A stretch of DNA of 64,000 bases from Candidatus Gottesmanbacteria bacterium (GTDB lineage: Bacteria > Patescibacteriota > Microgenomatia > 2-02-FULL-39-11). Every line of letters begins with the position of its first letter. Position 1 is the stretch's first letter. Below are positions 13,252 through 64,000 of the stretch, in pieces. The notes below the pieces were generated by a model. The model was not told where the DNA came from. It did no database searches and was given only the letters and a program-made list of their open reading frames with translations. Position numbers and translations under genes: made by a program. The DNA lies in assembly GCA_016186795.1 (NCBI GenBank), contig JACPKY010000002.1:925892-989891 (forward strand), written 5' to 3'.

Positions 13252-13872
13252 AAGGGCAAAAAACTGGAATACTTCATCTGTCACAAGAAGAAACGTATTG
13301 GGGAAAACGACTCTTAATCCTGTTTGAGAAAGAAAAAGGAAGAGAATGATAATGATTGGTCCGGCAATAATAAGGCTCTCAACATCTTTTTTACTTGAAA
13401 ACATTGTCATCGATGTAACAAATAATAGATAACAAAGAATAGGTAACAGAACGAAAGAATACTGATTGGTTGTTATCCAGGAGAGGTTCACAAAAAATAT
13501 TTTTCCAAGAAAATAAATGAATGACAATCCCATAAGTATTGGTGCAAGACCAACAATTGCGTGTCTAAAAGGATCAACTTTTGCAATCATGAGCTTCCCA
13601 GCCCGAATCGTTCCATCTTTTTCGATTGTGGGAAAGATAGAAAGTTCGCCAGTTGGTACAAAAAGGATAAGAGCTACAAAAAAATGAGACAGCTCATGGA
13701 TGATGGTTCCCGGCAAAAGCACTATCGTGACAGCAAAAAGAGCCGCAGTTTTACTTCGTGTAGCAAGATATGCAAGAAGGTAGATAAAAGTAGATATTTT
13801 TTTAGAAAGGACAAAAAGGCAAAGTAGGAAGAGTATCGAAAGTATAATGTAGAAATAGAAAGGCAACGACAT
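13147..13872 (-). CDS. Polytopic membrane protein with HExxH motif (IIHELSHFF) in a TM helix; putative intramembrane zinc metalloprotease (site-2-protease-like)
   Basis: 6-7 hydrophobic segments with HELSH inside a helix. No clear second LDG motif, so family assignment is tentative. Confidence 0.4.
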
Positions 13873-44729: not shown

Positions 44730-46913
44730 TTATCCCTTTACAGCGCCCAATTCCAAAATCATAAACTGAGAGCGATTAATAGGAGCAAGTGTAGGATTTT
44801 CTGGATTTGGAGAAATTTCTGAACTAACAAAAAAGTGTAAACGGTAAAGATTGTCTGGTCTGGGAGTGATTTTTAAGGGCAACTTATTATTTACTTCATC
44901 TTCTGATATTAAACCAATAAACAAATAATCTGAATCTATATCGAAGCTGGCATGGCGCAGTTCAAATAAGAGGCGTTCTTCTTCAAGAGGAAGAAGAGCG
45001 AGTTTTTGGGAGATATCTTGTACAAATTTGGCTAACTGACTTTTGGGGATGATCCAACTCGTATCCGGTTTAGTAAATTCTTTTGATTCGTATTCATAAT
45101 AGAGAAAATCTCGTATAAATTCCCCCACTTTCAAACTTTTATTTTCTTGTATCGCTACATTCCAGATATTTTCTTTTGATATAGGAGGGTCGGAATAGAT
45201 AGGCAAAAGACCTGGTTCTATAGCTACATTAGTATACGCTTGGGCATAGATGAAAAGCGTGGGTGAAGTGACACTAAGCCTGATGGGACAATGGGGTTCA
45301 TCGCTCATCATCTTTGCAACTGTTTCGGCAGAAACCAATGGTTGGGTATAATCAGGTACTGTTTTATGCACCTGATCAAGAAGTTCATCTACAGTTGGTA
45401 ACTGATATTCCGGCGGCCATGGTAGGTACCAGAGAGCTTTGTGAGTAGTAGTTACTACGTGCAGACCGACCCGACCCATCCCAAAACCTAGATCCCAAAT
45501 GGGGTTTAAATATTTTTCTATACTTGCGTATGTGCACTTTTTAGGAGTGGGGGTGGGTGTCGGTTGTCCTGGATATAGAGTATTGGTCGGATGAGGAGTG
45601 GTTTCAGGTGTTGATGTTACTGTTGGACTAGGGGTAATTCCAGCTGGAAGAGTGGGTTGAGGAGTGGCTGTTGGAGTAACTGGAACAAAGGAGCCCAACT
45701 CTATTGAATCTCCAGCAACTTCTCCAACTCTTGTGAGAGAAAGAAGAGACGTTGTTCCATCTGCAAGAGCTGGGATGGTTTCGGTAAATCGGACTGTGTA
45801 TCCTGAGTTAAGCAGGGCAGTTCCTCGAATAAGATACATCGGGACAAGATTTGTTTGCACAACTGTTGGGTGATTTTCCAGATATGTCAGTACGTAGTCT
45901 GTAATTGTCGCTTTTTTGGCATGGGCTAGATTTCCGGGATAGACTTTCCCGATATCTACTGCTCCACTCCCAGCAGGGAGAGTAAGTGAGAGAGATGATT
46001 TATGAGCAATAAACTGTTGTAGAGCTTGTTGGGGTGAAAGTAGTTCTTCTTGTTGAATGATCCGTCGTGAGGCGATCCATCGTATGTTGGAAGCGATAGA
46101 CAATAGTTTACCTTCCTTATCTATAGCAACAGTCATTGTGTTAAAGTCATTGGGACGGGCAAAACCGTCCTGATTAGTAGAGGTATTGATGATATTTTCA
46201 TCTTCTATAGTTGAAAGAGACGTTACACCCACGGCCAAAGAAGATAGTGGTTGATCTTCGGGGGCGTTGACTACCCCCAGTGCGCTTAATATCGGAAGAC
46301 CGGCAAGATCCCAGTCTCGGTGACACTCGACGAAAGTGAATCCTGGTGAATCTTTCTTTTTATACGTGATGGGACAGCTGACTGTATCATCAGTGATACC
46401 GAGAGAAAAAAGAAGCGCTTGAATTGGTTGTTCAAGAGGAATCCCAACAAATGACTGATAGGAAAAACCTCCGGTCTGTGGATAGAACGTAAGCATACCA
46501 AGACTGTCTGGGTTTTTGACATTTTTAAGAACAACAAGAGCGTTCGTTGAACTTTGTATCTCACTTAAACTTAATCTTTGTCCAAAAGAGACAATTTCTT
46601 CTTGTGAGTAGTTTTTTTTAAGAGTATAGGCATACATCGTATCAGGAATAACCGGTAGAGAAGCAGTATTTTCGTACGTTTCAAAATAGACTTGCGGTGG
46701 AGGACCGATGGTGGGGGAAATTTCTGAAGGGATAGGAATAGAATCAGGAGAAGGTTTTTGAGGTAAAGATTGCTTGGAAAGTAGAAGAAAAACCATTGTG
46801 ACAAAGAAGAAACATCCCACAGCAAGAAAAAGCAAACGGTGACGGGAAAGGAGATTTTTTAGACGTTGCCAGTGAGAGAATGATATTGTATCAACATCCT
46901 GAGTTTCCATCAT
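44730..46913 (-). CDS. Hypothetical large (727 aa) N-terminally anchored extracytoplasmic protein with Thr/Pro linker
   Basis: ORF with TM near the N-terminus and PTPTPTP linker. No recognised domain. Confidence 0.45.
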   Translation of the reverse strand: MMETQDVDTISFSHWQRLKNLLSRHRLLFLAVGCFFFVTMVFLLLSKQSLPQKPSPDSIPIPSEISPTIGPPPQVYFETYENTASLPVIPDTMYAYTLKKNYSQEEIVSFGQRLSLSEIQSSTNALVVLKNVKNPDSLGMLTFYPQTGGFSYQSFVGIPLEQPIQALLFSLGITDDTVSCPITYKKKDSPGFTFVECHRDWDLAGLPILSALGVVNAPEDQPLSSLAVGVTSLSTIEDENIINTSTNQDGFARPNDFNTMTVAIDKEGKLLSIASNIRWIASRRIIQQEELLSPQQALQQFIAHKSSLSLTLPAGSGAVDIGKVYPGNLAHAKKATITDYVLTYLENHPTVVQTNLVPMYLIRGTALLNSGYTVRFTETIPALADGTTSLLSLTRVGEVAGDSIELGSFVPVTPTATPQPTLPAGITPSPTVTSTPETTPHPTNTLYPGQPTPTPTPKKCTYASIEKYLNPIWDLGFGMGRVGLHVVTTTHKALWYLPWPPEYQLPTVDELLDQVHKTVPDYTQPLVSAETVAKMMSDEPHCPIRLSVTSPTLFIYAQAYTNVAIEPGLLPIYSDPPISKENIWNVAIQENKSLKVGEFIRDFLYYEYESKEFTKPDTSWIIPKSQLAKFVQDISQKLALLPLEEERLLFELRHASFDIDSDYLFIGLISEDEVNNKLPLKITPRPDNLYRLHFFVSSEISPNPENPTLAPINRSQFMILELGAVKG

Positions 46914-46972: not shown

Positions 46973-47455
46973 ATGGTTGCGCAAAACAGCCAACTTAGGA
47001 AAAAATTGGAAAATTCCGCTTTTACTCGGCCAAAAAAGGGCCGAGTTATTTGTTTCTGCGGCTCATTTAAGTTTTATAAGGATATGGAACGTGCCGCAAA
47101 AACACTTCGCAAATATGGGTATAAAGTTATTGTTCCTCAGCCCTCTCATATCCGCCACGGTCATAAGCCTGAAGAACTCAAAACGAAAAAATACGACAAA
47201 AAAACGCTCACCAAATGGGAAGGAGAGGGAGCATTTGCCCATCTTGAGAATATCAGAAAAAGTGATGCAGTCTACATTTTTAACAAAGGCTCCTATCTGG
47301 GACCTGCTGTGACTGTCGAAATTGGGTATTCTCTGGCATTAAAAAAGCCAATTTTTTCGAAATCAAAAATACGAGATATTACCATAACCAACTTTATTTC
47401 GAAAGTTGTCTCCCCTCAAAAATTGAGAAAGTATTTGATCAAAGAGGAGGTATAA
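46973..47455 (+). CDS. Nucleoside 2-deoxyribosyltransferase-like protein (tentative)
   Basis: SDAVYIFNKGSYLGPAVTVEIGYSLALKKPIF resembles the C-terminal signature of the NDT family. Sits in a purine-salvage context. Confidence 0.35.
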   Translation: MVAQNSQLRKKLENSAFTRPKKGRVICFCGSFKFYKDMERAAKTLRKYGYKVIVPQPSHIRHGHKPEELKTKKYDKKTLTKWEGEGAFAHLENIRKSDAVYIFNKGSYLGPAVTVEIGYSLALKKPIFSKSKIRDITITNFISKVVSPQKLRKYLIKEEV

Positions 47456-47462
47456 TAAAAGT

Positions 47463-48449
47463 ATGAATAGTGTTATTCATCCATTCGGAGAGCTTACAGA
47501 ACTCCACGTCCATGTAGGATCAGCAGTTGATCCTCCTATGATGTGGGAGATAGCCCATGATCAGGGGATTAAACTACCCACCAAAAATTACTGGGATTTT
47601 CGAAGTCTCATTACTGTTTCGGATGTTACAACCTACCAAAAATACCTTGATCTTTTCCACTGGACAGAGCTCATTCAATCCTCTCCAGAGGCAATGGAAA
47701 AGAGTATTTACTCGATCGCCTCAGGGGCATATCGAAAAAATAACATCACAACGTTGGAAATCCGTTTCAATCCCATGAAGAGGAATCGGGGTGGAGAACG
47801 AGATCTTGATCACATTATTCTTGCCGCAGTACACGGAATGGAGAAGGCGATGCTCGCTTTTCCCATTCGGGTTGGACTTATTTTTTGCTTCGATCGGACA
47901 TTTTCTCCAAAACTCAACGCGATTTTAGCCCAAAAAGCAATCAAATACGCTAAACGTGGTGTTGTTGGAATTGATTTGGCAGGACCAATTGATGAAAAAT
48001 TTTCTCTTGAGTCGCTCGTTCCATTGGTTTCCGATTGTAAAAACGCAGGACTTGGCGTAACAATTCATACGGGGGAGGCAACTGGAGCAGGAGAGGTAAA
48101 AAGGGTTATTGAACTTCTACAACCCTCTCGTATCGGTCATGGTGTACGATCAATTGAGGATGAAGATGTACTTAGACTTCTTTCTTCGCGTGGAATTACT
48201 CTAGAAGTGTGTCCGACATCCAATATCCATACGGCAGTTGTCAAAGATTTATTTTCCTTCAAAGAAATATTTAGGAAACTTAAGACGTTCAATGTTCCTT
48301 TTACGGTGAATACTGACGGACCTGAGATGCTTGGGACGAACCTTGTTTCTGAATACAATTTGTTACTGAAAGAAGGAATTCTGACAAAGGAGGACTTGCA
48401 TCTCGCATCGAAACAAGCAAAAAAAGCAAGTTTTATTCCCCATGAATGA
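47463..48449 (+). CDS. add: Adenosine deaminase family protein
   Basis: ELHVHVGSAV metal-binding start, HTGEATGAGEV, SRIGHGV, LEVCPTSNIHT. Confidence 0.8.
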   Translation: MNSVIHPFGELTELHVHVGSAVDPPMMWEIAHDQGIKLPTKNYWDFRSLITVSDVTTYQKYLDLFHWTELIQSSPEAMEKSIYSIASGAYRKNNITTLEIRFNPMKRNRGGERDLDHIILAAVHGMEKAMLAFPIRVGLIFCFDRTFSPKLNAILAQKAIKYAKRGVVGIDLAGPIDEKFSLESLVPLVSDCKNAGLGVTIHTGEATGAGEVKRVIELLQPSRIGHGVRSIEDEDVLRLLSSRGITLEVCPTSNIHTAVVKDLFSFKEIFRKLKTFNVPFTVNTDGPEMLGTNLVSEYNLLLKEGILTKEDLHLASKQAKKASFIPHE

Positions 48450-49515
48450 AAATAAAATTGTGCAAAAACCGGGACTCACATTTGACGACGTACTCGTTTT
48501 ACCGAATTTTGCCCAAGTGAAGCGCCAAGATATTGATGTAAAGACACATCTCACCCAAAAGATTTCCCTTTCTATTCCTATTGTTTCTTCTCCGATGGAT
48601 ACCGTAACAACAGCCCTTCTTGCGATTTCTTTGGCAAAACTCGGAGGGATTGGTTTTTTGCATCGAAACTTAACGATTGAGCAGCAAGTCGAAGAAATAA
48701 AAATAGTAAAAGAAGGAAATCATCTGGTCGGTGCAGCTGTGGGCGTTGGGAAAGACCTCGAGGAACGAGTATCAAAACTTGCGGGAGTAAATGTCGACGC
48801 ACTCATTGTCGATAGCGCTCATGGATTTTCAAAATGGGTGATTGATGCTGTTACGTTTATTGCCCAAAAATATCCTCAGATTGAGCTTATTGGAGGCAAC
48901 ATTGCAACGAAGGAAGGAGCAGAAGCACTCATTAAAGCTGGGGCAAACGCATTACGAGTTGGTATGGGGCCTGGATCAATCTGCACAACAAGAGTTATCT
49001 CCGGTATGGGAGTACCCCAAATTACAGCAATTATGGAGGTTTACTCTGTTGCCAAAGAACATAACATCCCAATTATTGCAGATGGTGGTATTCGTTCTTC
49101 CGGGGATATTGTTAAAGCGCTTGCAGCGGGGGCTGACTGCGTCATGCTTGGTTCTCTTCTGGCAGGATCGAATGAAGCACCTGGTGAAAAAGTAACAATT
49201 GAAGGAAAAGAGTATAAACGCTATCGCGGGATGGGCTCAGTTGCGGCGATGGTAGAAGGGGGAGCAGCCCGTTACGGTCAAGAATATATAAAAGGGAAAG
49301 AGAAAAAATTAGTAGCTGAGGGTATTGAAGGTCTTGTCCCGTATAAAGGGAGTCTTGAAGATGTTATTGGTCAACTTGTCGGTGGGCTTCGAACAGGCAT
49401 GTACTATGCGGGAGTAAAAAATATTAAAGAGCTAAAAGAGAAAACACGGTTTCTCAAAATTACCCAGGCATCACTTATAGAAAGTTATCCTCATACTATA
49501 ACTATTAGAAAATAA
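48442..49515 (+). CDS. guaB: IMP dehydrogenase, short CBS-less form
   Basis: Catalytic loop [11 protein letters not shown], long flap YKRYRGMGS...GLVPYKG, C-terminal ESYPH. 357 aa with no CBS pair. Confidence 0.7.
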
Positions 49516-49521
49516 ATAGCT

Positions 49522-50163
49522 ATGGTTACTACTGAGATAAGCCCGGGTGAACCTATAAATCTTTCCAAAGATTTCACAACATCCGGATATTGGGACATTT
49601 TAGAAATTGAAGAATTTATGTTCCGAGGGAAATATGAAAGAATTGGTGCAGATTGTTGGGGAGTGGGAGGTCCATGTGCGCATAGTAAGGGTGGTAAATG
49701 TGGCGAATTTGTGAGTTGTCAAGCGGCAAATAGGGCTATGATAGTAGATGATGCAGACGAAATTATTGCATGCCCATTATTTGTTGATCTGGATGAGTCA
49801 TGGAGAGGAGCGTCTTTGTTTTACGAAAAAGTAAAAAATCTAGATAGATTCCGGAATATAGACGATAAAGATAGCCGACTAAAGCATAGATTGATTGATC
49901 TTGATGGGGAGCCTCTTGAACCTGATGAAGTACTTGAAGCTGAGGATGAAAGATCGACACAGAGATTAGAATGGTATCAACCTTCTAGATTGCAAGATGC
50001 TTTACTCCTAATTGATAGACGAAGGAGAGTCAATATGAGTCGGGTAGGTGATGAGTGGGAAGATCAATCAGAATTTGAATTACCTTCTTCAAAAACAATC
50101 GAAGATCTATCATCTAGGCAGAGAGAGATTTTAATAGACTTTCGTAGAGAACATAACTTATGA
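49522..50163 (+). CDS. Hypothetical Cys-rich acidic protein inserted between guaB and guaA
   Basis: CWGVGGPCAHSKGGKCGEFVSC cluster. Stop overlaps the guaA start (ATGA). Confidence 0.45.
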   Translation: MVTTEISPGEPINLSKDFTTSGYWDILEIEEFMFRGKYERIGADCWGVGGPCAHSKGGKCGEFVSCQAANRAMIVDDADEIIACPLFVDLDESWRGASLFYEKVKNLDRFRNIDDKDSRLKHRLIDLDGEPLEPDEVLEAEDERSTQRLEWYQPSRLQDALLLIDRRRRVNMSRVGDEWEDQSEFELPSSKTIEDLSSRQREILIDFRREHNL

Positions 50164-51677
50164 TTCTAATTATTGATTTTGGTTCACAAACTACTCATCT
50201 TATTAGCCGGCGGATAAAAGATTTAGGGGTAAAAACTCACATCGTCTTACCAAATCAAGCGGTTTCTGCTATAAAGCAATACCAACCTAAAGGCATCATA
50301 CTTTCCGGAGGCCCTTCCTCTGTCTATGGGAAAGATGCCCTCCTCGTCGACAAAAAAATTTTTGATGAAAATATCCCCATTTTAGGTATTTGCTATGGTC
50401 ATGAAGTACTTGCTCATCTTTTAGGCGGAAAGGTTGAAACAGGAGTTAGAAAAGAATATGGTCCGGAAACACTCACGATCACCAAAGATACGAGTTTATT
50501 CAAAGGGCTCAATAGGCAAGAGCTTGTCTGGAATAGTCATTTCGACCGAGTCGTAGCTCCTCCAAGTGGAGCTCAAATAACTGGTTTTACTCCATCAGTT
50601 TCTGTTGCTGCATTTGCCGATGAGGAAAAGAGACTATATGGGACGATGTTTCATCCAGAATCCCACCACACTACATCCGGCAATAAAATTCTTTCTAACT
50701 TTCTTATTGATATATGTGGTGAAATACCAACAGATCAGAAAATTAATAGAGAAGAGATTGTAGGTAGTATTAAAGAAACAATTAGAGACGATTTGGCAGT
50801 TTGTGCGCTATCGGGAGGAATAGATTCGGCTGTTGCGGCAGTTCTTACCTACAAAGCTATTGGGGATAAACTTACTTGTCTTTACGTTGATACGGGTATG
50901 ATGAGACTGGATGAAACAGAGCAAATTATTGGAATGTTTAAGAAAAATTTCCAATTAAACCTGGAAGTATTGCGGGCCGAAAAAGAATTCCTGGAAGCTC
51001 TAAAAGGAATAATTGATCCTGAGGAAAAAAGGAAAACGGTCGGGCGTGTTTTTATAGAGGTTTTTGAAAGAGAAGCCAAAAAACTCGGGGCCACATTTCT
51101 CATTCAGGGAACTATTTATCCTGACGTTATTGAAAGCAAAGGTAGCCAGCATGCACAAAATATCAAATCACACCACAATGTCGGAGGGCTGCCGAAGAAA
51201 CACGGGTTCAAAATTGTTGAACCATTGAGAAATTTATATAAAGATGAGGTTCGAGAGCTGGCAAAAGAGCTTGGATTTCCTCATGAGCTTATCTGGCGTC
51301 ATGTTTTCCCAGGACCAGGTCTTGCGGTGAGGATCATCGGCGAAGTTACCAAAGAAAAATTAGATATTTTACGCAAAGCCGACGCTATCATTGTTGAAGA
51401 ACTCAAAAAGGCTGGACTCTATGAAAAAATCTGGATGGGGTTTGCTATCTTTGCGGGAATTAAAACGACCGGAGTTGCGGGAGATGAGAGAAAGTATGGG
51501 GAGACTATTGCACTTCGAGTCATCGAATCCAAAGATACCATGTCGGCAGATTGGGTCCGACTTCCATATGATCTACTCGATAAAATCTCTCATCGAATTG
51601 TGACAGAGGTGTATGAAGTTGTCCGAGTAGTGTATGACATCACCACCAAACCTCCTGCAACCATGGAGTGGGAATAA
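50160..51677 (+). CDS. guaA: GMP synthase (glutamine-hydrolysing)
   Basis: Glutamine amidotransferase GICYGHE, ATP-pyrophosphatase SGGIDSAV, dimerisation domain. 505 aa. Confidence 0.9.
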   Translation: MILIIDFGSQTTHLISRRIKDLGVKTHIVLPNQAVSAIKQYQPKGIILSGGPSSVYGKDALLVDKKIFDENIPILGICYGHEVLAHLLGGKVETGVRKEYGPETLTITKDTSLFKGLNRQELVWNSHFDRVVAPPSGAQITGFTPSVSVAAFADEEKRLYGTMFHPESHHTTSGNKILSNFLIDICGEIPTDQKINREEIVGSIKETIRDDLAVCALSGGIDSAVAAVLTYKAIGDKLTCLYVDTGMMRLDETEQIIGMFKKNFQLNLEVLRAEKEFLEALKGIIDPEEKRKTVGRVFIEVFEREAKKLGATFLIQGTIYPDVIESKGSQHAQNIKSHHNVGGLPKKHGFKIVEPLRNLYKDEVRELAKELGFPHELIWRHVFPGPGLAVRIIGEVTKEKLDILRKADAIIVEELKKAGLYEKIWMGFAIFAGIKTTGVAGDERKYGETIALRVIESKDTMSADWVRLPYDLLDKISHRIVTEVYEVVRVVYDITTKPPATMEWE

Positions 51678-55835: not shown

Positions 55836-56020
55836 TATCCAAAACTGGATACAATTAGTTCCCATCTGTTTTCACACGTACTCAAGTGTTTCCTCTTACT
55901 ATAATTATCTTGAAAAAAGTTATATCTTTTTTTGCATTTGAGGCTAGTTGCAAAAGTGCTATGAAGTGATATACTTTGTTCTCTTGACAGGGTGTATGTA
56001 GGGTCTTACTATGATTGAGG

Positions 56021-56036
56021 ACACTATAGATAGAGT
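56021..56036. promoter_or_regulatory. Candidate NrdR box ACACTATAGATAGAGT, 60 bp upstream of nrdR
   Basis: 14 of 16 match to the approximate consensus ACACwAwATwTwGTGT. A weaker ACAC...GTGT 16-mer at 55874-55889. Confidence 0.3.
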
Positions 56037-56096
56037 AACAAGAGTTTCACGCTAAGGCGTGTTTTTTATGGCCAAATTACTTTCCTAAATGACGGT

Positions 56097-56543
56097 ATGA
56101 AGTGTCCTTACTGTACAGGAGCTGAGACAGAGGTTATTGAAACCCGAGATAGTGATGATCTGGGTACAACAAGGCGGAGACGTGAGTGTGCCAGTTGTTC
56201 GAAGCGATTTACAACATACGAAAGGGTTGAGACGGTGCCAATCATCGTCATGAAGAAGGATGGGAGGAAAGAGCAGTTTGATCGTGACAAGTTAAAACAT
56301 GGGGTTTTGAAAGCGTGTGAAAAAACAGTTGTTGGCATTGAAGATATCGATCGAATTGTGGATGAGGTAGAGCGGGAACTTCGAGGTTTTGACAGTGTTG
56401 AAGTGGATAGTAAAAAAATCGGACAGATGGTTGCAATGCGACTTAAGAAAATTGACAAGATTGCCTATATCCGTTTTGCGTCAGTTTTCCGGCGTTTCGT
56501 CGACCTTGAAGATTTTGAGAAGGAGTTACAGAAATTGTTATAA
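56097..56543 (+). CDS. nrdR: Transcriptional repressor NrdR
   Basis: MKCPYCTGAETEVIETRDS...RRRECASCSKRFTTYE zinc ribbon plus ATP-cone. 148 aa. Confidence 0.9.
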   Translation: MKCPYCTGAETEVIETRDSDDLGTTRRRRECASCSKRFTTYERVETVPIIVMKKDGRKEQFDRDKLKHGVLKACEKTVVGIEDIDRIVDEVERELRGFDSVEVDSKKIGQMVAMRLKKIDKIAYIRFASVFRRFVDLEDFEKELQKLL

Positions 56544-56584
56544 CAATTATAAACGTTAAAATTTTTATAAAATAAAAAAATAGT

Positions 56585-59500
56585 ATGAAACTTTCAGGAA
56601 TCCGCCAAACCGTTTTCCTTGACCGATATTCACTCAAAGATGAGAAAGGAAATCCAGTTGAGAAAACTCCAGAACAGATGTGGAAAAGGGTCGCTCACGG
56701 AATTAGTCAGGTGGAAAAATCGAGCGTACAGAAGTATTGGGCGGAGAAATTTGAGAGTATCATGCAGGATTTTAAATTCGTTCCTGGAGGGCGGATCCTT
56801 TCGGGAGCAGGGACTGGGTACAACGTAACATTCTATAACTGCTTTGTTATTCCTTCTCCAAAAGATTCTCGCGAGGGCATTTTAGATACCCTAAAACAAA
56901 TGGTTGAGATTATGGCACGAGGAGGAGGGGTAGGAATTAATCTTTCATCACTGCGTCCCCGAGGGGCACGTGTCAAAAAGGTAAATGGGTTTTCCTCAGG
57001 CCCTTGTAACTGGGCAGAACTTTTTTCTGTTGCGACCAAAGATATCATTCAACAGGGTGGAACACGAAGAGGAGCTCTCATGCTCATGCTCTGGGATTGG
57101 CATCCGGATGTTGAGGAGTTTATTACAGTGAAACGCGACCTTTCCCGGATAAACGGTGCCAATCTTTCAGTATGTGTTTCTGACAAATTCATGGAGGCAG
57201 TGAAAAAAGATGACGACTGGCAGCTTTATTTCCCCGATACAAATGATCGTGAGTATGATACCAAGTGGGAAGGGTATATGGATGAGTGGCTCAAGATGGG
57301 GAAGAAAGTAAAAGTTTTCAAAACAATTAAAGCCCGGAAGCTGTGGGATCTTATTTGTGAAGCAGCGTGGGCTTCTGCAGAACCTGGTGTTGTTTTCATG
57401 GAGCGGTACAACAAATGGTCGAACAATTGGTATTTCAACAAAATAAACTGTGTCAATCCGTGTGTCACTGGAGATACGTTGGTCTCCACAACGAATGGAT
57501 TACAATCTATGCGGAAATTGTACGAGATTGGAAAGCCATTTAGAGTTGTTGTCGATGGGAAGAATTATCTATCTACCCATGTAAAACATACAGGAGTAAA
57601 ACCTGTATATCGATTGAGAACCCGTGAGGGTTATGAAATGAAATTAACAAATGACCATAAAGTCATTACGGTAAATGGTAAAAAAGAAGCAGATGAACTT
57701 GTTTCCGGTGATAAAATTTTACTCTCACATGGAGGATCATTTGGAGTAACAGGGAATATAGAAGAAGGGAACGTATTAGGATGGCTTGTTGGCGATGGAA
57801 CAATGAAAAAGGATGTGGCGACTCTTTTCTTTTATCATAATGAGAAACAGGAATTAGCACCTCAATTTGCCTCTATGGTGGGAAAAATGGTTGAAGGAGA
57901 GGGTGTCACGCAGAGGATGTATCCAATTTTCCCTCAATATATTGAGAAAGAAAATAAGGCAGTTGTTGAATCAGTTAGACTTTGGAGGATAGCATATCGA
58001 TATGGAATAACACATGAAAATAAGTATATCGTGCCAGAACAAGTATTTGGAGGATCGGAAGAATTTCAACGAGGATTTTTGCAAGGTCTATTTTCAAGTG
58101 ATGGTACGGTAATAGGTACACCAAATAAAGGCGTGAGTGTTCGTCTTACCTCTGTGAGTTATTCTCTTCTTATCGGAGTACAGCGGTTACTTCTCAATTT
58201 GGGAATTCTAAGTAAAATCTATAAAAAAAGAAGGACAGAATCAAATCGTTTATTGCCGGATGGGCGAGGTGGGAAGAAATCATACTATTGTCAGGCATAT
58301 CATGAACTTGTTATCTCAAAAGTAAGCTTAATACGGTTCGCAGCTCTAATAAATTTTCTTCAGGACAATAAGAAGAATAAACTTGCTTCATTACTCTCAC
58401 TTTATGGACGGGGACCCTACAAAGAATCTTTCATGGCAACATTCTCTGCGTTGGAGAAGGATGGAGTTGAAGAAGTATTCGATATAACTGTTGCTGATAT
58501 TCATCGGTTTTCCGCAAATGGACTTATCGTATCTAACTGTGGTGAAGAGGGTCTCCCTGCATGGGGTGTATGTAACCTTTGTTCAATAAATCTTGCAGCG
58601 CTGGTGAAGGATGGGAAGATTGACTACAAGGAACTATCTGATATTGCAAAGGTTGGCGTTCGATTTCAGGATGACATTATCGATGCCGATTCCTACGTTT
58701 TCCCCCAAATTCGGCAAGTTCAGCAAAACGGAGAAAGGCGTATTGGTCTTGGAACAATGGGTCTTGGCGATGCGCTTATTAAAATGAAGTTGCGCTATGG
58801 TTCACCTGAGTCACTTCGAGAAATTGACAAGATTTATAAAACAATTCGAGACGCAGCATACGAATCATCGGTTGAAATCGCAAAAGAAAAAAGTCCGTTT
58901 CGAGAATTTGACGCTAAAAAACACCTCAAAGGGCATTTTATAAAGCGGCTTCCCAAAAAGACCCTTACAGCCATAAAAAAGTGGGGAGTGAGAAACTCTG
59001 TTCTTCTTCAACAAGCCCCAACCGGTTCAACGTCGCTTCTTGCTGGAGTTTCCTCAGGAATCGAACCAGTCTATGAGTTTTCGTTCGTCCGCCGTGACCG
59101 CTTGGGTGAACACACGCTGTATCATCCACTCTATGAAGAGTGGAAAAAATCTCATCCGAATGATCCCGTTCCTCCCTACTTTGTTTCAGCCAACGATTTG
59201 ATACCCGAAGATCATGTACGGGTACAGGGTGCAATACAAAAGTACGTTGATGCATCGATTTCTAAAACCGTGAACGCTCCCAACAATCATACTATTGAGG
59301 ATGTGCGGAAACTCTACACTCTCGCATATGAGTTAGGATGCAAAGGGGTGACATATATGCGAGAAGGAAGTAGGCCTGGAGTACTTGAGCGAATTCCTGA
59401 AAAGAAAGATGAGAAAGAAAGTGTCCAAAAAGAGAAAGCAACACCAAACGGAAACGGTCATTTGCCGGTTCGTGAAGAGATTATGCCAAGGCCAATGATG

Positions 59501-60016
59501 GTAGCTGGTGCAACATATCAGATTGATACACCTGTTGGGACTGCGTTTGTGACAATTAATACTGATGCCAACAATCAACCACTTGAAGTGTTTATAAATG
59601 TCGGTAAAGCAGGTTCTGATGTAACAGCGATGGCAGAGGCTTTGGGTAGAATTGTTTCACTTATGCTTCGCATGCAGTCAAGCGTTCCCGCATCAGAAAG
59701 AGCACGGCAAGTATTCAATCAGCTGATTGGTATTGGAGGATCAAAAGCGCTCGGATTCGGAGATAAGAGGGTGCGGTCACTTCCCGATGCTGTTGCGAAA
59801 GTTTTGGCAATGCACTATGGTTTTAAATTTAAAAATGGCAACGGAAATGGTCATCAACAAGCTGAGGGAAATCCACAAAGCGTACCAGTCTTAACACAGC
59901 AGTCACTTCCCGTAACGAAGATTGATTACGATCTTTGTCCATCATGCGGAGAGGCAGCTTTAGCCTACGAGGAAGGCTGCAAAAAGTGCTACAGTTGCGG
60001 ATACTCTGAGTGTTAA
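56585..60016 (+). CDS. nrdJ: Class II (adenosylcobalamin-dependent) ribonucleotide reductase NrdJ, monomeric type, interrupted by an intein
   Basis: RNR barrel motifs. NPC|GE active-site motif split by the intein. C-terminal CxxC...CxxC tail. Extein about 784 aa. Confidence 0.85.
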   Translation: MKLSGIRQTVFLDRYSLKDEKGNPVEKTPEQMWKRVAHGISQVEKSSVQKYWAEKFESIMQDFKFVPGGRILSGAGTGYNVTFYNCFVIPSPKDSREGILDTLKQMVEIMARGGGVGINLSSLRPRGARVKKVNGFSSGPCNWAELFSVATKDIIQQGGTRRGALMLMLWDWHPDVEEFITVKRDLSRINGANLSVCVSDKFMEAVKKDDDWQLYFPDTNDREYDTKWEGYMDEWLKMGKKVKVFKTIKARKLWDLICEAAWASAEPGVVFMERYNKWSNNWYFNKINCVNPCVTGDTLVSTTNGLQSMRKLYEIGKPFRVVVDGKNYLSTHVKHTGVKPVYRLRTREGYEMKLTNDHKVITVNGKKEADELVSGDKILLSHGGSFGVTGNIEEGNVLGWLVGDGTMKKDVATLFFYHNEKQELAPQFASMVGKMVEGEGVTQRMYPIFPQYIEKENKAVVESVRLWRIAYRYGITHENKYIVPEQVFGGSEEFQRGFLQGLFSSDGTVIGTPNKGVSVRLTSVSYSLLIGVQRLLLNLGILSKIYKKRRTESNRLLPDGRGGKKSYYCQAYHELVISKVSLIRFAALINFLQDNKKNKLASLLSLYGRGPYKESFMATFSALEKDGVEEVFDITVADIHRFSANGLIVSNCGEEGLPAWGVCNLCSINLAALVKDGKIDYKELSDIAKVGVRFQDDIIDADSYVFPQIRQVQQNGERRIGLGTMGLGDALIKMKLRYGSPESLREIDKIYKTIRDAAYESSVEIAKEKSPFREFDAKKHLKGHFIKRLPKKTLTAIKKWGVRNSVLLQQAPTGSTSLLAGVSSGIEPVYEFSFVRRDRLGEHTLYHPLYEEWKKSHPNDPVPPYFVSANDLIPEDHVRVQGAIQKYVDASISKTVNAPNNHTIEDVRKLYTLAYELGCKGVTYMREGSRPGVLERIPEKKDEKESVQKEKATPNGNGHLPVREEIMPRPMMVAGATYQIDTPVGTAFVTINTDANNQPLEVFINVGKAGSDVTAMAEALGRIVSLMLRMQSSVPASERARQVFNQLIGIGGSKALGFGDKRVRSLPDAVAKVLAMHYGFKFKNGNGNGHQQAEGNPQSVPVLTQQSLPVTKIDYDLCPSCGEAALAYEEGCKKCYSCGYSEC
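57461..58537 (+). mobile_element. Intein (359 aa) with LAGLIDADG homing-endonuclease domain inserted at the NrdJ catalytic cysteine motif
   Basis: Starts with Cys (CVTGDTLV), block B TNDH, LAGLIDADG motifs LGWLVGDGT and FLQGLFSSDG, ends ...LIVSN followed by extein +1 Cys (CGEEGL). Confidence 0.8.
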
Positions 60017-60020
60017 CCTC

Positions 60021-60566
60021 ATGGCAAGGCTAAAAATCTATACACGCACTGGAGATCGCGGACAAACATCTCTCTATGGTGGTAAGCGTGTCCCAAAAAG
60101 TCATTACCGTGTCAATGCGTATGGAACGATTGACGAGCTAAATAGTCTTTTGGGTATTGTGCTTTCCAAAATAGATGATGATCGTGTTCGGAAGTTTATT
60201 CATGGTATCCAACATGATCTATTTGTGATAGGTGGTCACCTTGCAGGAGCCAAAGTAGAGCTTGGAGTACTCAAAACACGAGTTGATGAGATGGAGAAAC
60301 TTATCGACTGGATGGATAGTAATCTTTCTTCTCTAAAATCATTTATTCTTCCTGATGGAACCGAGGCATCAACATTTCTTTTCTTTACGAGAGCCGTTGC
60401 CAGAAGAAGTGAGCGTGAGCTTGTTGCCCTTTCACTTGAAGAAAAAGTCGATGAGCGCGTTCTTATATATCTTAATAGATTATCCGATTTACTGTTTATG
60501 ATGGGAAGATATTTAAACTACAAAGCAAGTGTTGCAGAAACACCATGGAAGAGTAAAATAGAGTGA
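60021..60566 (+). CDS. PduO-type ATP:cob(I)alamin adenosyltransferase
   Basis: IYTRTGDRGQTSL N-terminus and the helical bundle pattern of MMAB/PduO adenosyltransferases. Confidence 0.8.
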   Translation: MARLKIYTRTGDRGQTSLYGGKRVPKSHYRVNAYGTIDELNSLLGIVLSKIDDDRVRKFIHGIQHDLFVIGGHLAGAKVELGVLKTRVDEMEKLIDWMDSNLSSLKSFILPDGTEASTFLFFTRAVARRSERELVALSLEEKVDERVLIYLNRLSDLLFMMGRYLNYKASVAETPWKSKIE

Positions 60567-60725
60567 TAGAAATTCTTGATGGTAGAAGGAATTCTGTGTA
60601 ACTCAGAAACTGTGCCGCAACGGTAAAGTCCGGAACTTCCCCTCAAGCTGAAGGCCGGATGGCCTAAGATCCCGAGCAGGAAATATTTTCTTAAGACATT
60701 TTGGCGGCTTAAGATAGTTATAAGA

Positions 60726-63149
60726 ATGCCTTCTCGGGATGAGAGGGCTTTTTTTATGGTCGAAGCAATTGCACCAGGAGGTATTGGACCGGGAGGCGGA
60801 TACTCATGTGATTTTCAAGCTTCACTTGGAAGTGATGTTCTCATGCGTATGGGGAAGGAGCAGGCAATCCGTGGACAGGCATTGGATCTTGCAACGCTCC
60901 AAAGTGAGCATTTTGATGTTGATCCAATTGGATTGTACACCTTGAAAGTTGCTCAGGCGCAGTTTATGGACAAGGTAACAGGACAGGTGCGAAATGAGTT
61001 GACACTCATTTCTGATGATTTCGGCGGTGAGCCGTTGGGTGTTTGGACAGATGCTGGAGAGCATGGGACTGGGACGAAAGAGGAGTATACGCGACTTATT
61101 ACATGGGCAAATGAACTAGCCACAACTAACGGTGAGGCAACTCTTACATGGGTAAATCCTGGCGAAAAAAGACCGGATGGGAAACCAGAACATCGGGTGT
61201 TTGTTTTACGGAAGGAAGAAAGTGGCAAAGTGAACGGAGCAATGTATTCACTCAGTGGTTCAAGCGAGACTCTTACCTCATTTGCAAAAACGCTTGGATT
61301 TTCTGCAAACGAGTCACTTGTAAAACAACGGTTGTTACAAAAAGAAGATACCGGTAGTATCACCCACCAGGATGTGTATCGGGCTTACCAGTTAGTTTTA
61401 ACGCCTCAGGAGAGACAAGAACAGTCACAGTTTCTTGAGCGTTTTCGGAAAGAAGCAGAAGATGTTCCCGATGATATTCGTTGGGCGAAAATACGGCATC
61501 GGCAGGAGATTTACGAACATCAGCTCTCACAATATGAGGGAGAGATATCAGAAGCATTGGGAATTATCGCGCAAGGATTTAGTGCATTGCCGCAATATTT
61601 AGATAAGAACCTAGATAATCATCAGGAATCTGCGGAAATACTTCCCTACGATCTAGTAAGAGAATTGCCTCAGTCGCAAAAACTTCCCTCACGAGAAAAT
61701 ACGAACCTTTCAATTGAGTTTAACGATCAAAAAGTCCCTGAGTTTCCCTTAGAGCAAAAAGATAAAGGTGAATTAGTTGTGGTACAAAGTAAACAGGAAG
61801 AAAGTGTGGTTCCGGAAGAAACCCGCAGCATTTTTCCTCAAGAATTAAATACTTCTAAAACGGAAGACCTTCAGGATGATGCCGCTTCAGAGATTACCGC
61901 AATCTTTGTGTATTCACTACTTTTACTTGCGAGGGATACGGGGAGAGAAGATGAATCATCTAAAGTCATATATTTACCTCTTTTCGCTCCTACCGATACG
62001 TTGATGGAAGAATATTCTCTTAAAAGTGATTCATTAGCCGATAGGACATCTTTTGAACAAAGGGAAGAAAATACCCATGAGAGTAAGCTATCTCACAGTG
62101 ATGTTTTCGTGATTTTTGAAGATCTTCTTCTTTCCCCACAAGAGGATGAGGGAGTTGAAATTTCTGCCTCCGTCCTTTCTATTTTCGATGAGGTTTTTAC
62201 CGATGAGATTTCTGAAGAAGAAAAAAAAGGAGCGCAAATTATTTTGACAGATGAGAATATCCAGAAGTTTCAGATTATGTATGAGAAACTGCAAGAGAAA
62301 AGTTTCGTGCTACCAGAAGAAAATGGTAGAGAGGACACTGATGCGAAGGGTACGATTCTTCATACCTCTCATGATGAGATCAGCAAGCTTTTCGATATTG
62401 CAAAATCAACTGATATCCCAGAGCCGGAACGGTTACTCGCGCTTGTTTTACTCTACGAGAAAATGCAAGCAACTATTCCCGACGTAGACAGTAAAGACAA
62501 GGAAGATGAGAAAACTGTCTTCCCCCCTCAAAAAAAACTACTCGATCAACTTGATACGATGTACACGTTTTTCCGTACTGAAATGAATGCGTATTTGGAA
62601 AAGGCAGACCAGGCGATCACAGCAGATCTTGATATAACACTCTCTGATTTTTTGAAGGGCGTAACATTGGCTTTTGAGCTGTCAGAAGGAGAAAAACTAG
62701 ATGAGCCTCGCTTTCCTGAAGAGAAAGTTCTTCTCAAATACGTAGTTGCGATCTCTCTTCTTCGAATTCTTTCCGAGACCTCTGGGAAAAATTTCGGAAT
62801 GATCGATGGAAAAAGGGCAAAGTCTGATCCTCATTATATTGACCATGTCCTTTCCTATCTTCTCATTCTCGTTGAAATGCCCAAGGATTCCCGTGAAAGA
62901 ATTCTCAATCTTTTGGAACTTAATCCTTTGCACCATGCTTCGATTGGCAATTTTCCTCTTTTTTGGAAGCAGTCGGAAGAAACATTCTCAGGTATCGTTT
63001 TTGAGAATTCAATCTGGCTTTTACGCCAGCGCCTTCTCCATGGCTATTCACCAACAGCATACAGTTTCCCATCACATATGATTCTTTTTGACTACTTCCG
63101 GGATGTTTATCAACGTTTTCATGGAAGGAGTGTAAATTTGTATGAATAG
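60726..63149 (+). CDS. Hypothetical 807-aa acidic protein
   Basis: Long ORF. No recognised motifs. Confidence 0.4.
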   Translation: MPSRDERAFFMVEAIAPGGIGPGGGYSCDFQASLGSDVLMRMGKEQAIRGQALDLATLQSEHFDVDPIGLYTLKVAQAQFMDKVTGQVRNELTLISDDFGGEPLGVWTDAGEHGTGTKEEYTRLITWANELATTNGEATLTWVNPGEKRPDGKPEHRVFVLRKEESGKVNGAMYSLSGSSETLTSFAKTLGFSANESLVKQRLLQKEDTGSITHQDVYRAYQLVLTPQERQEQSQFLERFRKEAEDVPDDIRWAKIRHRQEIYEHQLSQYEGEISEALGIIAQGFSALPQYLDKNLDNHQESAEILPYDLVRELPQSQKLPSRENTNLSIEFNDQKVPEFPLEQKDKGELVVVQSKQEESVVPEETRSIFPQELNTSKTEDLQDDAASEITAIFVYSLLLLARDTGREDESSKVIYLPLFAPTDTLMEEYSLKSDSLADRTSFEQREENTHESKLSHSDVFVIFEDLLLSPQEDEGVEISASVLSIFDEVFTDEISEEEKKGAQIILTDENIQKFQIMYEKLQEKSFVLPEENGREDTDAKGTILHTSHDEISKLFDIAKSTDIPEPERLLALVLLYEKMQATIPDVDSKDKEDEKTVFPPQKKLLDQLDTMYTFFRTEMNAYLEKADQAITADLDITLSDFLKGVTLAFELSEGEKLDEPRFPEEKVLLKYVVAISLLRILSETSGKNFGMIDGKRAKSDPHYIDHVLSYLLILVEMPKDSRERILNLLELNPLHHASIGNFPLFWKQSEETFSGIVFENSIWLLRQRLLHGYSPTAYSFPSHMILFDYFRDVYQRFHGRSVNLYE

Positions 63150-63555
63150 ATTCATGAAAGGTTTTATTCTCATATTGGTTGGGACTATCATTCTTGCAGT
63201 TTTCGTTCTTCCCAAGAATGGTTGGTTCGATGTGGAAAAAGAGAATACGGGCAAAGCTGTACAAGTTGAAAAAAAGCATATTACGATGGTAATTGATTTT
63301 GGTGATAGAGTACGTTCATATACCGGTGTGGAAGCCTCGACTGTCTTTGAGGGATTGAAAAATATCTATCCGGAAGTTGAAGTAAAAACGTATGATTTTG
63401 GAATGCTTGTAACTAAAATTGAGGGAAAACAAAATTCGCCGACTCATGCATGGTTGTATTGGGTGAATGGAAAGGAAGCGACACTTTCTGCAGATATGTA
63501 CATTACAGAGGATGGAGATATGGTAGAATGGAAATACGTTTCACTGACTCAGTAA
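63142..63555 (+). CDS. DUF4430 domain protein (transcobalamin-like beta domain, putative cobalamin-binding)
   Basis: N-terminal TM, then FG...WLYWVNGKEATLSADMYITEDGDMVEWKY, the DUF4430 signature. Confidence 0.6.
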   Translation: MNRFMKGFILILVGTIILAVFVLPKNGWFDVEKENTGKAVQVEKKHITMVIDFGDRVRSYTGVEASTVFEGLKNIYPEVEVKTYDFGMLVTKIEGKQNSPTHAWLYWVNGKEATLSADMYITEDGDMVEWKYVSLTQ

Positions 63556-63556
63556 T

Positions 63557-64000
63557 ATGAAAAGAAAAGAAGTAGGTCTTGCATTATTTTTGATTCTTAC
63601 AGGAATTTTTTTCCGGACAATTTGGCATATCGGGCCAAATGTGGAATTTTTGACAACAGCATCATTTCTTTCTTCATATTACCTTTCCAAAAAATGGGCA
63701 ATTATTGTTCCACTTGCAACGATTGTCGCATCAGATATAGTTTTGGGTAACACGCTAATATTTTTATTTACCTGGAGTGGATATGTTGGTATTGGTCTTC
63801 TTGCTAGTTTGGTAAAAAATATTCGCAGGGTAGTACCCATCGTTTCCGGACTAGGATTTGTTATTGTTTCAGCACTTTGGTTTTACCTCTGGACGAATTT
63901 CGGGGTATGGCTCCTTGATAGTTTCGGTATGTATGATAATACTCTCAGCGGTCTTATCAATTCCTACATTGCTGGATTTCCTTTCTTGAGAGCTCACATT
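63557..64000 (+). CDS. Polytopic membrane protein, partial (runs off window end); possible ECF-type S-component or BtuM-like vitamin transporter
   Basis: ATG at 63557, at least 4 hydrophobic helices. Not in the ORF track because it has no stop in the window. Functional guess from adjacency to DUF4430. Confidence 0.35.
   Translation, partial: MKRKEVGLALFLILTGIFFRTIWHIGPNVEFLTTASFLSSYYLSKKWAIIVPLATIVASDIVLGNTLIFLFTWSGYVGIGLLASLVKNIRRVVPIVSGLGFVIVSALWFYLWTNFGVWLLDSFGMYDNTLSGLINSYIAGFPFLRAHI

Follow-up and report, generated by a model that had tools for sequence, protein, structure and literature searches.

The 64,000-nucleotide stretch of DNA analysed here (the window; contig JACPKY010000002.1, positions 925,892 to 989,891, from a Candidatus Gottesmanbacteria bacterium of the candidate phyla radiation, CPR) ends in a cluster of genes that probably forms a unit, in two linked parts, for the use, activation and import of vitamin B12 (cobalamin). 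Five recognisable genes, nrdR, nrdJ, pduO, a DUF4430 gene and a DUF6580 gene, all lie on the plus strand within 55836-64000, together with a large acidic open reading frame (ORF), here called X, and a cobalamin riboswitch located between pduO and X. The features of the cluster, numbered from the first nucleotide of the window, are these:

55984..56012, plus strand: promoter-like site TTGACA-17-TACTAT upstream of nrdR
56021..56036, plus strand: NrdR-box-like palindrome ACACTATAGATAGAGT, just 3' of the -10 element before nrdR
56097-56543, plus strand: nrdR, transcriptional repressor of ribonucleotide reductase (RNR) genes, 148 aa
56585-60016, plus strand: nrdJ, precursor of a class II RNR dependent on adenosylcobalamin (AdoCbl), 1143 aa
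57461..58537, plus strand: intein within nrdJ, 359 aa, CVTGDTL...GLIVSN, with a LAGLIDADG homing endonuclease
60021-60566, plus strand: pduO, PduO-type cob(I)alamin adenosyltransferase, 181 aa
60576-60646, plus strand: cobalamin riboswitch aptamer, Rfam RF01689 (AdoCbl-II), a full-length match of the short form that lacks the P6 extension
60670-60681, plus strand: 12-nt expression-platform element TCCCGAGCAGGA, candidate kissing-loop partner and anti-terminator strand
60728-60755, plus strand: intrinsic terminator GCCTTCTCGGGATGAGAGGGC followed by T7 (hairpin 60728-60748)
60756-63149 as the likely extent, 60726-63149 as the longest reading, plus strand: X, large acidic ORF of an uncharacterised family
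63142-63555, plus strand: DUF4430 gene, CbrS-like, 137 aa
63557-64000, continuing past the window end, plus strand: DUF6580 gene, polytopic membrane protein, candidate B12 transporter subunit

All five named genes lie where the initial annotation had placed them, and each exceeds the curated cut-off of its family model. NrdR scored 182.4 bits with TIGR00244 (cut-off 124.65) and contains the Zn_ribbon_NrdR (PF22811) and ATP-cone (PF03477) domains, which place it in the NrdR family. NrdJ scored 543.6 bits with the class II model TIGR02504 (NrdJ_Z; cut-off 399.95), with further matches to PF02867 (E = 3.8e-119) and the TSCPD domain (PF12637), and 334.1 with the class I model TIGR02506 (NrdE/NrdA), below the cut-off of 341.05. 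With the first model above its cut-off and the second below, NrdJ is not classified as class I or III and the class II assignment made at the outset holds. The C-terminal tail of NrdJ follows the pattern CxxC...CxxC...C and, going by its class, the enzyme needs AdoCbl. Hidden Markov model (HMM) searches likewise bore out PduO (TIGR00636, 185 bits against a cut-off of 108.45; PF01923, 182.7 bits, E = 7.9e-54), which belongs to the adenosyltransferase family, and the DUF4430 protein (PF14478, 38.7 bits against 23.8). The DUF6580 protein matched PF20221 (cut-off 27) with 87.9 bits for the part encoded in the window and 96.8 bits for the full 185 aa, the rest of the sequence being taken from an identical metagenomic contig (L001, 6464-7021; L numbers denote fetched loci throughout). 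Judged by these families, nrdR, nrdJ and pduO encode an RNR repressor, a B12-dependent RNR and the enzyme that makes its cofactor. Directly in front of nrdR, a consensus scan returned the promoter-like site with 10 of 12 matches, a pattern match of a kind no commoner there than in shuffled sequence, and the palindrome ACACTATAGATAGAGT departs at two positions from the NrdR-box consensus, which we take to be ACACWATATATWGTGT; as a single box it is weakly significant (0.62 expected at three or fewer mismatches). Given the palindrome and the promoter-like site, nrdR and nrdJ would be autoregulated.

Three elements of the cluster go beyond the initial annotation, namely the riboswitch at 60576-60646, the likely start of X and the intein in NrdJ. 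The intein comprises NrdJ residues 293-651, with boundaries C293...N651/C652 located between NP and CGE of the active-site motif, and matches PF14890 (Intein_splicing, 47.1 bits against a cut-off of 35.8) and PF14528 (LAGLIDADG_3, 76.8 bits against 22.5). Because it splits the catalytic NPCGE motif, NrdJ must splice; removal of residues 293-651 restores NPCGEEGLP, as found in intein-free orthologues, and yields a mature protein of about 784 aa. The intein is absent from all NrdJ orthologues examined (772-780 aa; 80-83% identical to the window NrdJ), and in three aligned orthologues it is precisely missing, leaving NP-CGEEGLP uninterrupted.

The riboswitch aptamer begins ten bases past the pduO stop codon and is the sole Rfam match in the whole window. 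RF01689, formerly named AdoCbl-variant, belongs to the riboswitch clan CL00101. Despite its small margin over the gathering score (37.6 bits versus 36.5), we regard the call as secure because the aptamer is conserved across orthologous loci. RF01689 matches occur at the same position in three of these loci with 38.2, 41.4 and 44.1 bits, and further orthologous sites scored 30.6 bits (L011) and 32.8 bits (L017) with RF00174 and 24.7 bits with RF01689 (L014); in L012 and L013 the riboswitch core is present and broken up by inserted hairpins. An aptamer stands at this position in every orthologous locus with upstream sequence, and the core of the window aptamer is also found in RF00174 matches of 71-74 bits in related loci. 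The riboswitches of L011-L014, L017, L020, L023, L026 and L029 differ by hairpins inserted at the P6-extension position and elsewhere. Neighbouring species therefore shift between RF01689-like short forms and RF00174-like long forms, and the forms may differ in which upper ligand of cobalamin they prefer.

Downstream of the aptamer, the 12-nt element TCCCGAGCAGGA recurs in 30 of the 96 fetched loci (chance expectation about 0.3 by our own estimate), on the plus strand every time and always adjoining the module, just 5' of X or DUF4430 and, in four loci, just 3' of DUF6580. Between this element and the 5' arm of the terminator GCCTTCTCGGGATGAGAGGGC, 10 of 11 positions are complementary, and the two pair in the minimum-free-energy fold. 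The terminator itself, found by a terminator scan (9 pairs, 5 of them G-C), has a 3' arm, GAGAGGG, that doubles as the sole plausible Shine-Dalgarno sequence for the ATG at 60756, and L007, L009, L010 and L012 share this conserved arrangement of terminator hairpin and subsequent ATG. L014 lacks a terminator, and there the conserved element itself bears an AGGAG Shine-Dalgarno sequence 6 nt before the ATG. Two expression platforms thus lie behind one sensor, since the window uses a terminator and L014 masking of the Shine-Dalgarno sequence.

The location of riboswitch and terminator between pduO and X indicates that X, DUF4430 and DUF6580 would form a B12-repressed operon, with a B12-dependent OFF-switch expected by analogy with characterised cobalamin riboswitches. 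A consensus scan returned no promoter-like site on the plus strand between 58218 and 63502; therefore the switch may attenuate a long nrdR-nrdJ-pduO transcript internally, although this is a weak inference. A riboswitch placed inside one apparent long transcription unit would separate constitutive genes of B12 use from conditional genes of import.

The two last genes of the cluster encode the proposed importer. The DUF4430 protein has one segment resembling a transmembrane (TM) helix, an N-terminal membrane anchor at residues 1-29, and a profile of nine DUF4430 orthologues matched the DUF4430 structure PDB 3U7Z (E = 9e-4). The DUF4430 domain is the C-terminal domain of transcobalamins (PMC4350170). 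From these sequence features we propose that the protein is a membrane-anchored, extracytoplasmic B12 capture protein of CbrS type. Its partner has about 5-6 TM-like segments and a calculated isoelectric point (pI) of 10.1. The initial annotation had raised this membrane protein as a possible vitamin transporter and had named BtuM and the S-components of energy-coupling factor (ECF) transporters as models; as a transporter it remains a candidate, it belongs to DUF6580 with a weak remote similarity to CbrT, and the canonical models failed to match. A Pfam scan at E up to 1 gave just DUF6580, DPM2 and PIG-P, with no S-component family, and PDB searches at E up to 10, run with the DUF6580 sequence alone and with its profile, returned no BtuM chain. 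The profile of nine DUF6580 orthologues had a single match among 177,635 PDB sequences, which was CbrT (6FNP_A, E = 1.2); aligned with CbrT-like sequences by hhalign it gave a probability of 70% (E = 4e-5, 72 columns), and in hmmsearch it recovered the CbrT ORF with E = 9e-4. DUF6580 matches none of the domain models of the CbrT family, and a distant relationship between the two is plausible. DUF6580 likely works like CbrT.

We scanned a DUF6580 alignment against 185,579 species genomes and obtained 133 confirmed loci, of which 80 were kept for analysis. These span Gottesmanbacteria, Woesebacteria, Dojkabacteria, Saccharibacteria and further Patescibacteria, as well as cultivated Actinobacteria of the genera Cellulosimicrobium, Oerskovia, Promicromonospora, Isoptericola, Myceligenerans and Luteimicrobium. 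By HMM annotation, DUF4430 lies directly 5' of DUF6580 in about 70 of the 80 loci, in several classes of Patescibacteria and in Actinobacteria, and NrdJ and/or PduO adjoin in 24. Rfam scans were run on 40 of the 80 loci, the remainder being screened by the 12-mer and a core pattern. RF00174 riboswitches lie directly before DUF4430-DUF6580 in loci that lack X (73.9 bits in L045, 71.7 in L030 and 71.1 in L057), and RF00174 matches of about 40 bits precede the pair in L043 and L024, which also lack X. The strong riboswitches in X-less loci place the DUF4430-DUF6580 pair in the B12 regulon independently of X. Insertion-rich variants from Patescibacteria elude the Rfam models; L031, L046 and L063, for example, contain both core and 12-mer and gave no match. 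A search of the available literature found no paper mentioning DUF6580, and searches on PF14478, CbrS, or Patescibacteria together with nrdJ returned nothing on the present system.

Several observations touch the sequence that follows the pair. Group I introns (RF00028, 57-64 bits) lie 1-2 kb 3' of DUF6580 in two Woesebacteria loci (L039, 5834-6054; L041, 5018-5252). In L001 (7027-9171) and likewise in L009-L013, the gene that starts 5 nt behind DUF6580 encodes a conserved product of about 150 aa that matches no family, and the one after it a membrane ATPase of about 780 aa with DUF8128 and DUF87/TrwB-like domains, resembling a type IV coupling protein; this order of DUF6580, the smaller protein and the ATPase is kept in every X-containing locus that extends far enough. 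Riboswitches are also found after DUF6580 and before other uncharacterised proteins in four Patescibacteria loci (L075, 4168-5006; L028, 4012-5437; L066, about 4148; L088, about 4218). The L075 protein (274 aa) ends in CGNCG...CSCGGVYEGC, like the Cys-rich C-terminal tail of NrdJ; aligned with the N-terminal domain of X by hhalign it reached a probability of 44%, too weak to establish a remote relationship.

Protein X lacks TM-like segments, is predicted to be soluble and is acidic (pI 4.67). The initial annotation gave it 807 aa; it is probably 797 aa long and starts at 60756 rather than 60726, because the terminator precedes that ATG, the terminator's 3' arm supplies the Shine-Dalgarno sequence, and gene callers agree. 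The extra ten codons of the longer reading are translated terminator, just as the over-extended N-termini of distant X homologues read '...GFFM', a translated U-tract, and the 797-aa protein is identical to the NCBI entry 'hypothetical protein HYW55_06220', with independent gene calls starting at 60756. X had no sequence match in Pfam, NCBIfam or PDB. A word-indexed search returned 7 relatives, and an exhaustive HMMER search of 1.84 billion proteins with a profile of its N-terminal domain (N-domain) returned 57 cluster representatives; a repeat search with a 51-sequence N-domain alignment returned one protein and added nothing. Family members, fragments aside, are 650-1440 aa long and consist of an N-domain of about 285 aa, an acidic, repeat-rich and variable middle of 160-950 aa with recurring short hydrophobic motifs, and a helical C-terminal region. 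In most members the C-terminus has a Lys-rich stretch and a FPxxG(I/V)IYxY motif (consensus FPxxGIIYxY), and window X ends in SFPSHMILFDYFRDVYQRFHGRSVNLYE (SFPSHMILFDY), a degenerate form of this motif that lacks the Lys-rich run.

The N-domain was modelled by AF2 with a mean predicted local distance difference test (pLDDT) of 86.3 and a predicted TM-score (pTM) of 0.84, and a Foldseek search of PDB with the model gave no significant match. Across the family only E51 and R147 are invariant. A flexible, Gly-rich and otherwise variable N-terminal arm contains one position, aligned with Cys18 of window X, that is Cys in 39 and His in 11 of the 51 representatives, with His one residue off in the remaining one. 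Because a position restricted to Cys and His resembles an axial metal or cofactor ligand, we propose X as a corrinoid handler. BtuM provides a related case, ligating the cobalt of B12 through a Cys (PMC6072759). On the genomic context and the Cys/His pattern we therefore suggest, tentatively and at somewhat less than even odds, that X is a cytoplasmic receiver or processor of corrinoids. Two candidate signatures in X were rejected. The motif WTDAGEHGTG was considered as a P-loop and dismissed, as it misfits Walker A and is lost in distant members, and a weak CbiG_mid match in the X of L012 (E = 0.03, below cut-off) was disregarded since it was not reproduced in other members.

Among fetched relatives of X, down to 21-25% identity, the order is NrdJ-PduO-[riboswitch]-X-DUF4430-DUF6580 wherever the contig reaches far enough upstream. 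In each of the ten Xn-positive loci with upstream sequence (L008-L014, L020, L023 and L026), X comes first after the riboswitch; L017 and L018 are additional copies of the L013 locus or closely related to it, and in L029 the riboswitch is followed by an X that diverges further still. Within the 80 DUF6580 loci, X is limited to a Gottesmanbacteria-related subset. In one Gottesmanbacteria genome an unrelated 457-aa ORF with a Cys-rich C-terminus (L021, 1369-2742, minus strand) fills the gap between pduO and DUF4430; hhalign of this protein and of the L028 protein against the X N-domain gave probabilities of 0.1%.

Our reading of the cluster joins these elements as follows. In the first part, nrdR-nrdJ-pduO, NrdJ would splice out its intein and PduO would make AdoCbl for NrdJ. 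When cobalamin is plentiful, the aptamer would capture the anti-terminator element, the terminator would form and transcription would stop; when cobalamin is scarce, read-through would reach the X, DUF4430 and DUF6580 genes. The terminator would also cover the ribosome-binding site of X. The DUF4430 protein would capture B12 outside the membrane, and DUF6580, in the role of CbrT, would move it across. X could then receive or process the imported corrinoid, with the arm Cys/His as cobalt ligand, and pass it toward PduO and NrdJ. The scavenge-activate-use circuit put forward by the initial annotation is supported by the riboswitch before X-DUF4430-DUF6580 and by the match to a known nrdJ-cbrS-cbrT-pduO cluster. 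The same annotation suggested that the large ORF might serve RNR or B12; its position behind the riboswitch links X to B12, and this alone, while nothing ties it to RNR. In its fullest form, the proposal makes X a new class of cytoplasmic corrinoid-trafficking protein, made under B12 starvation only. Its N-domain, of a fold not seen before, would bind imported cobalamin through the Cys (His in other clades) of the flexible arm, and X would take the cofactor over from DUF4430/DUF6580, an importer independent of ECF, and deliver it to PduO and NrdJ. We regard this full proposal as doubtful.

A number of observations weigh against parts of this reading. For the importer, CbrT-like proteins carry PF07155 and PF12822, and DUF6580 matches neither; its similarity to CbrT is statistically weak and confined to TM1-3. 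The 64-kb window contains no ECF or ATP-binding cassette (ABC) energising module, and 75 of the 80 DUF6580 loci lack an adjoining ABC-like ORF, the ABC-ATPase-like ORFs beside the other five all being on the opposite strand. DUF6580 transport could be powered by a shared ECF module encoded elsewhere, or the protein could be solitary, as proposed for BtuM. Riboswitches at the gathering threshold were absent from all seven actinobacterial loci and from most of the scanned Woesebacteria loci, and the window riboswitch itself exceeds that threshold by just 1.1 bits. For X, no homology, fold match or motif points to corrinoid binding; residues 1-18 were modelled at pLDDT below 50, so that the Cys/His arm is of low confidence, and the WTDAGEHGTG motif of the window subgroup is unconserved across the family. 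All X loci belong to one lineage in which unrelated neighbouring genes are also syntenic, and synteny alone therefore proves little for X. Finally, two Gottesmanbacteria loci that lack X, L022 and L027, keep NrdJ-PduO-DUF4430-DUF6580 contiguous, which makes X dispensable to the core system. X is thus an accessory that joined an uptake operon already under riboswitch control.

These last findings lend themselves to an alternative in which X has nothing to do with B12 chemistry and is a fast-evolving, lineage-specific protein (structural, a scaffold, or a selfish insertion) that came under B12 regulation by positional accident in one sub-clade of Gottesmanbacteria. The intact gene order of L022 and L027 fits this view, as do the X-less riboswitches that directly precede DUF4430 and the great variability of X, which ranges from 650 to 1440 aa around an acidic, repeat-rich middle with two invariant residues and no fold or family match. 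Against it, X keeps its place right after the switch even in homologues of 21-25% identity and in the divergent X of L029, the 8-nt overlap of the X stop with the DUF4430 start in the window suggests co-translation, the N-domain is conserved and predicted to be well folded (pLDDT 86), and the arm position restricted to Cys and His points to a ligand-type constraint. We hold a positional accident to be less likely than not.

B12 riboswitches often control B12-independent isozymes, such as metE and class I or class III RNR genes, and X could likewise be a B12-independent back-up function for times of B12 scarcity. The riboswitch architecture, which would turn the X operon on under B12 limitation only, accords with such a role, and in L075 a riboswitch precedes a different uncharacterised protein with a NrdJ-like CxxC...C.C tail. 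X, however, resembles no RNR, no methionine synthase and no other known enzyme; its few invariant polar residues and long disordered acidic region are atypical of enzymes, and it is co-transcribed with uptake genes. We give this explanation little credence. It is comparably improbable that the DUF4430-DUF6580 pair imports something else, such as cobinamide, a corrinoid precursor or cobalt, or is no transporter. ECF-CbrT also carries cobinamide (PMC5997447), the nearest solved DUF4430 relative, PDB 3U7Z, is labelled 'putative metal binding protein', and no energising module lies near the pair. Genes for cobalamin synthesis or nucleotide-loop assembly, however, are missing from the 64-kb window, linkage of the pair with NrdJ, PduO and cobalamin riboswitches is tight in different lineages, and DUF4430 shares its Pfam family with the transcobalamin C-terminal domain (PMC4350170). 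A chance riboswitch match, with the large ORF truly beginning at 60726, is suggested by a score that barely exceeds the gathering threshold and is very improbable given orthologous matches of up to 44.1 bits, a core common to the 71-74-bit matches, the conserved 12-mer, the conserved terminator right before the ATG at 60756, the independent gene calls at that ATG and the '...GFFM' artefact in homologues.

CPR bacteria (Patescibacteria) have tiny genomes and draw cofactors from other organisms. The sole RNR seen in the window is B12-dependent, so DNA synthesis would hinge on the supply of B12 if no other RNR is encoded in the genome. The DUF4430-DUF6580 pair is a strong candidate for an uncharacterised family of B12 importers, and its actinobacterial members are open to experiment. 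Should the corrinoid-trafficking role of X hold true, the importer from which X takes its cofactor would represent a B12 uptake family not characterised so far, common among Patescibacteria and found in some Actinobacteria as well. X itself is a candidate for a B12 chaperone inside bacterial cells, a function of which little is understood beyond eukaryotes.

The rest of the window contains further genes of note. It opens at the chromosomal origin, with dnaA (831-2195) and dnaN (2373-3482), followed by genes of a type-IV-secretion-like kind for a TraG/VirB4-type ATPase (5004-7070) and a PrgI-family protein (7816-9123). A ClpB/ClpC-like ATPase of 1322 aa (9283-13251) has a C-terminal, zinc-ribbon-like CxxC...CxxC tail and an insert of about 270 residues between AAA_2 and the D2-small domain (roughly 11650-12460). 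We considered this insert as a second intein and rejected it, as it consists of four repeats of about 45 aa with the pattern ...SP.G.E.....G.YW.......W..G...EYF.... The large ORFs at 15612-20831, 3492-4949, 13872-15521 and 44730-46913 (1739, 485, 549 and 727 aa) gave no Pfam match at E up to 1e-4. Just upstream of the B12 cluster, at 46973-51677, lies a nucleotide-salvage block with genes for a nucleoside 2-deoxyribosyltransferase-like protein, adenosine deaminase, a member of the inosine-monophosphate dehydrogenase (IMPDH)/GMP-reductase family and GMP synthase, which is syntenic in the relatives L012 and L013.

Several parts of the cluster can be set beside known systems. The NrdJ intein resembles LAGLIDADG-containing inteins of class II RNRs in its N-terminal Cys, C-terminal Asn, +1 Cys and both domains, as well as in its conserved catalytic insertion site and sporadic presence among close relatives, and differs from them in its penultimate residue, which is Ser (VSN) where His is usual. 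The riboswitch is typical of the RF01689 and RF00174 classes in its full aptamer consensus, OFF-switch layout and control of uptake genes, and its downstream element can likewise dock to the aptamer or serve as anti-terminator. It differs from the Rfam riboswitches in that its orthologues in this lineage alternate between short RF01689-like and hairpin-inserted forms, the latter scoring with RF00174 or with neither model, and in the use of two platforms, one combining a terminator with Shine-Dalgarno masking (the window) and one masking the Shine-Dalgarno sequence directly (L014).

BtuM is, according to PMC6072759, a solitary S-component-like B12 binder and decyanase. Like DUF6580 it is a small polytopic membrane protein proposed there to import B12 without a dedicated ATPase module, and its Cys cobalt ligand offers a precedent for the Cys/His arm of X, with the difference that the conserved Cys/His of the present system is found in soluble X and not in the membrane protein.

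The closest counterpart is the nrdJ-cbrS-cbrT-pduO cluster of Lactobacillus delbrueckii, as given by Santos et al. (2018, eLife, PMC5997447), citing Rodionov 2009. ECF-CbrT (PDB 6FNP) is a proven importer of cobalamin and cobinamide (PMC5997447). Both clusters have the same four parts, a class II RNR, PduO, a small DUF4430 protein and, directly 3' of the latter, a membrane protein of about 185 aa, and L. delbrueckii is likewise given as a B12 auxotroph with an AdoCbl-requiring RNR. In two CbrT-like loci of Lactobacillales type (L015 and L016), the gene between nrdJ and cbrT, in the place of cbrS, encodes a 132-aa PF14478 protein. DUF6580 shares with CbrT the motif pattern PNV(E/Q)xVT ... S(D/N)xxxG in TM1-3, although it belongs to PF20221 whereas CbrT belongs to PF07155/PF12822, and no ECF module was found near the cluster in the 64-kb window. 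NrdJ is of the NrdJ_Z/TSCPD type in the window, whereas in L015 and L016 it has RNR_Alpha and RNR-II_ins_dom domains. Gene order also differs, with pduO preceding the uptake genes in the window, and the window adds riboswitch and terminator gating, the X gene and NrdR. These comparisons support the view that the core of the cluster is a riboswitch-gated variant of the known nrdJ-cbrS-cbrT-pduO module. The Gottesmanbacteria cluster is set apart by its membrane component, the uncharacterised DUF6580, by the intein that splits NrdJ and by an additional protein family without a recognisable fold.

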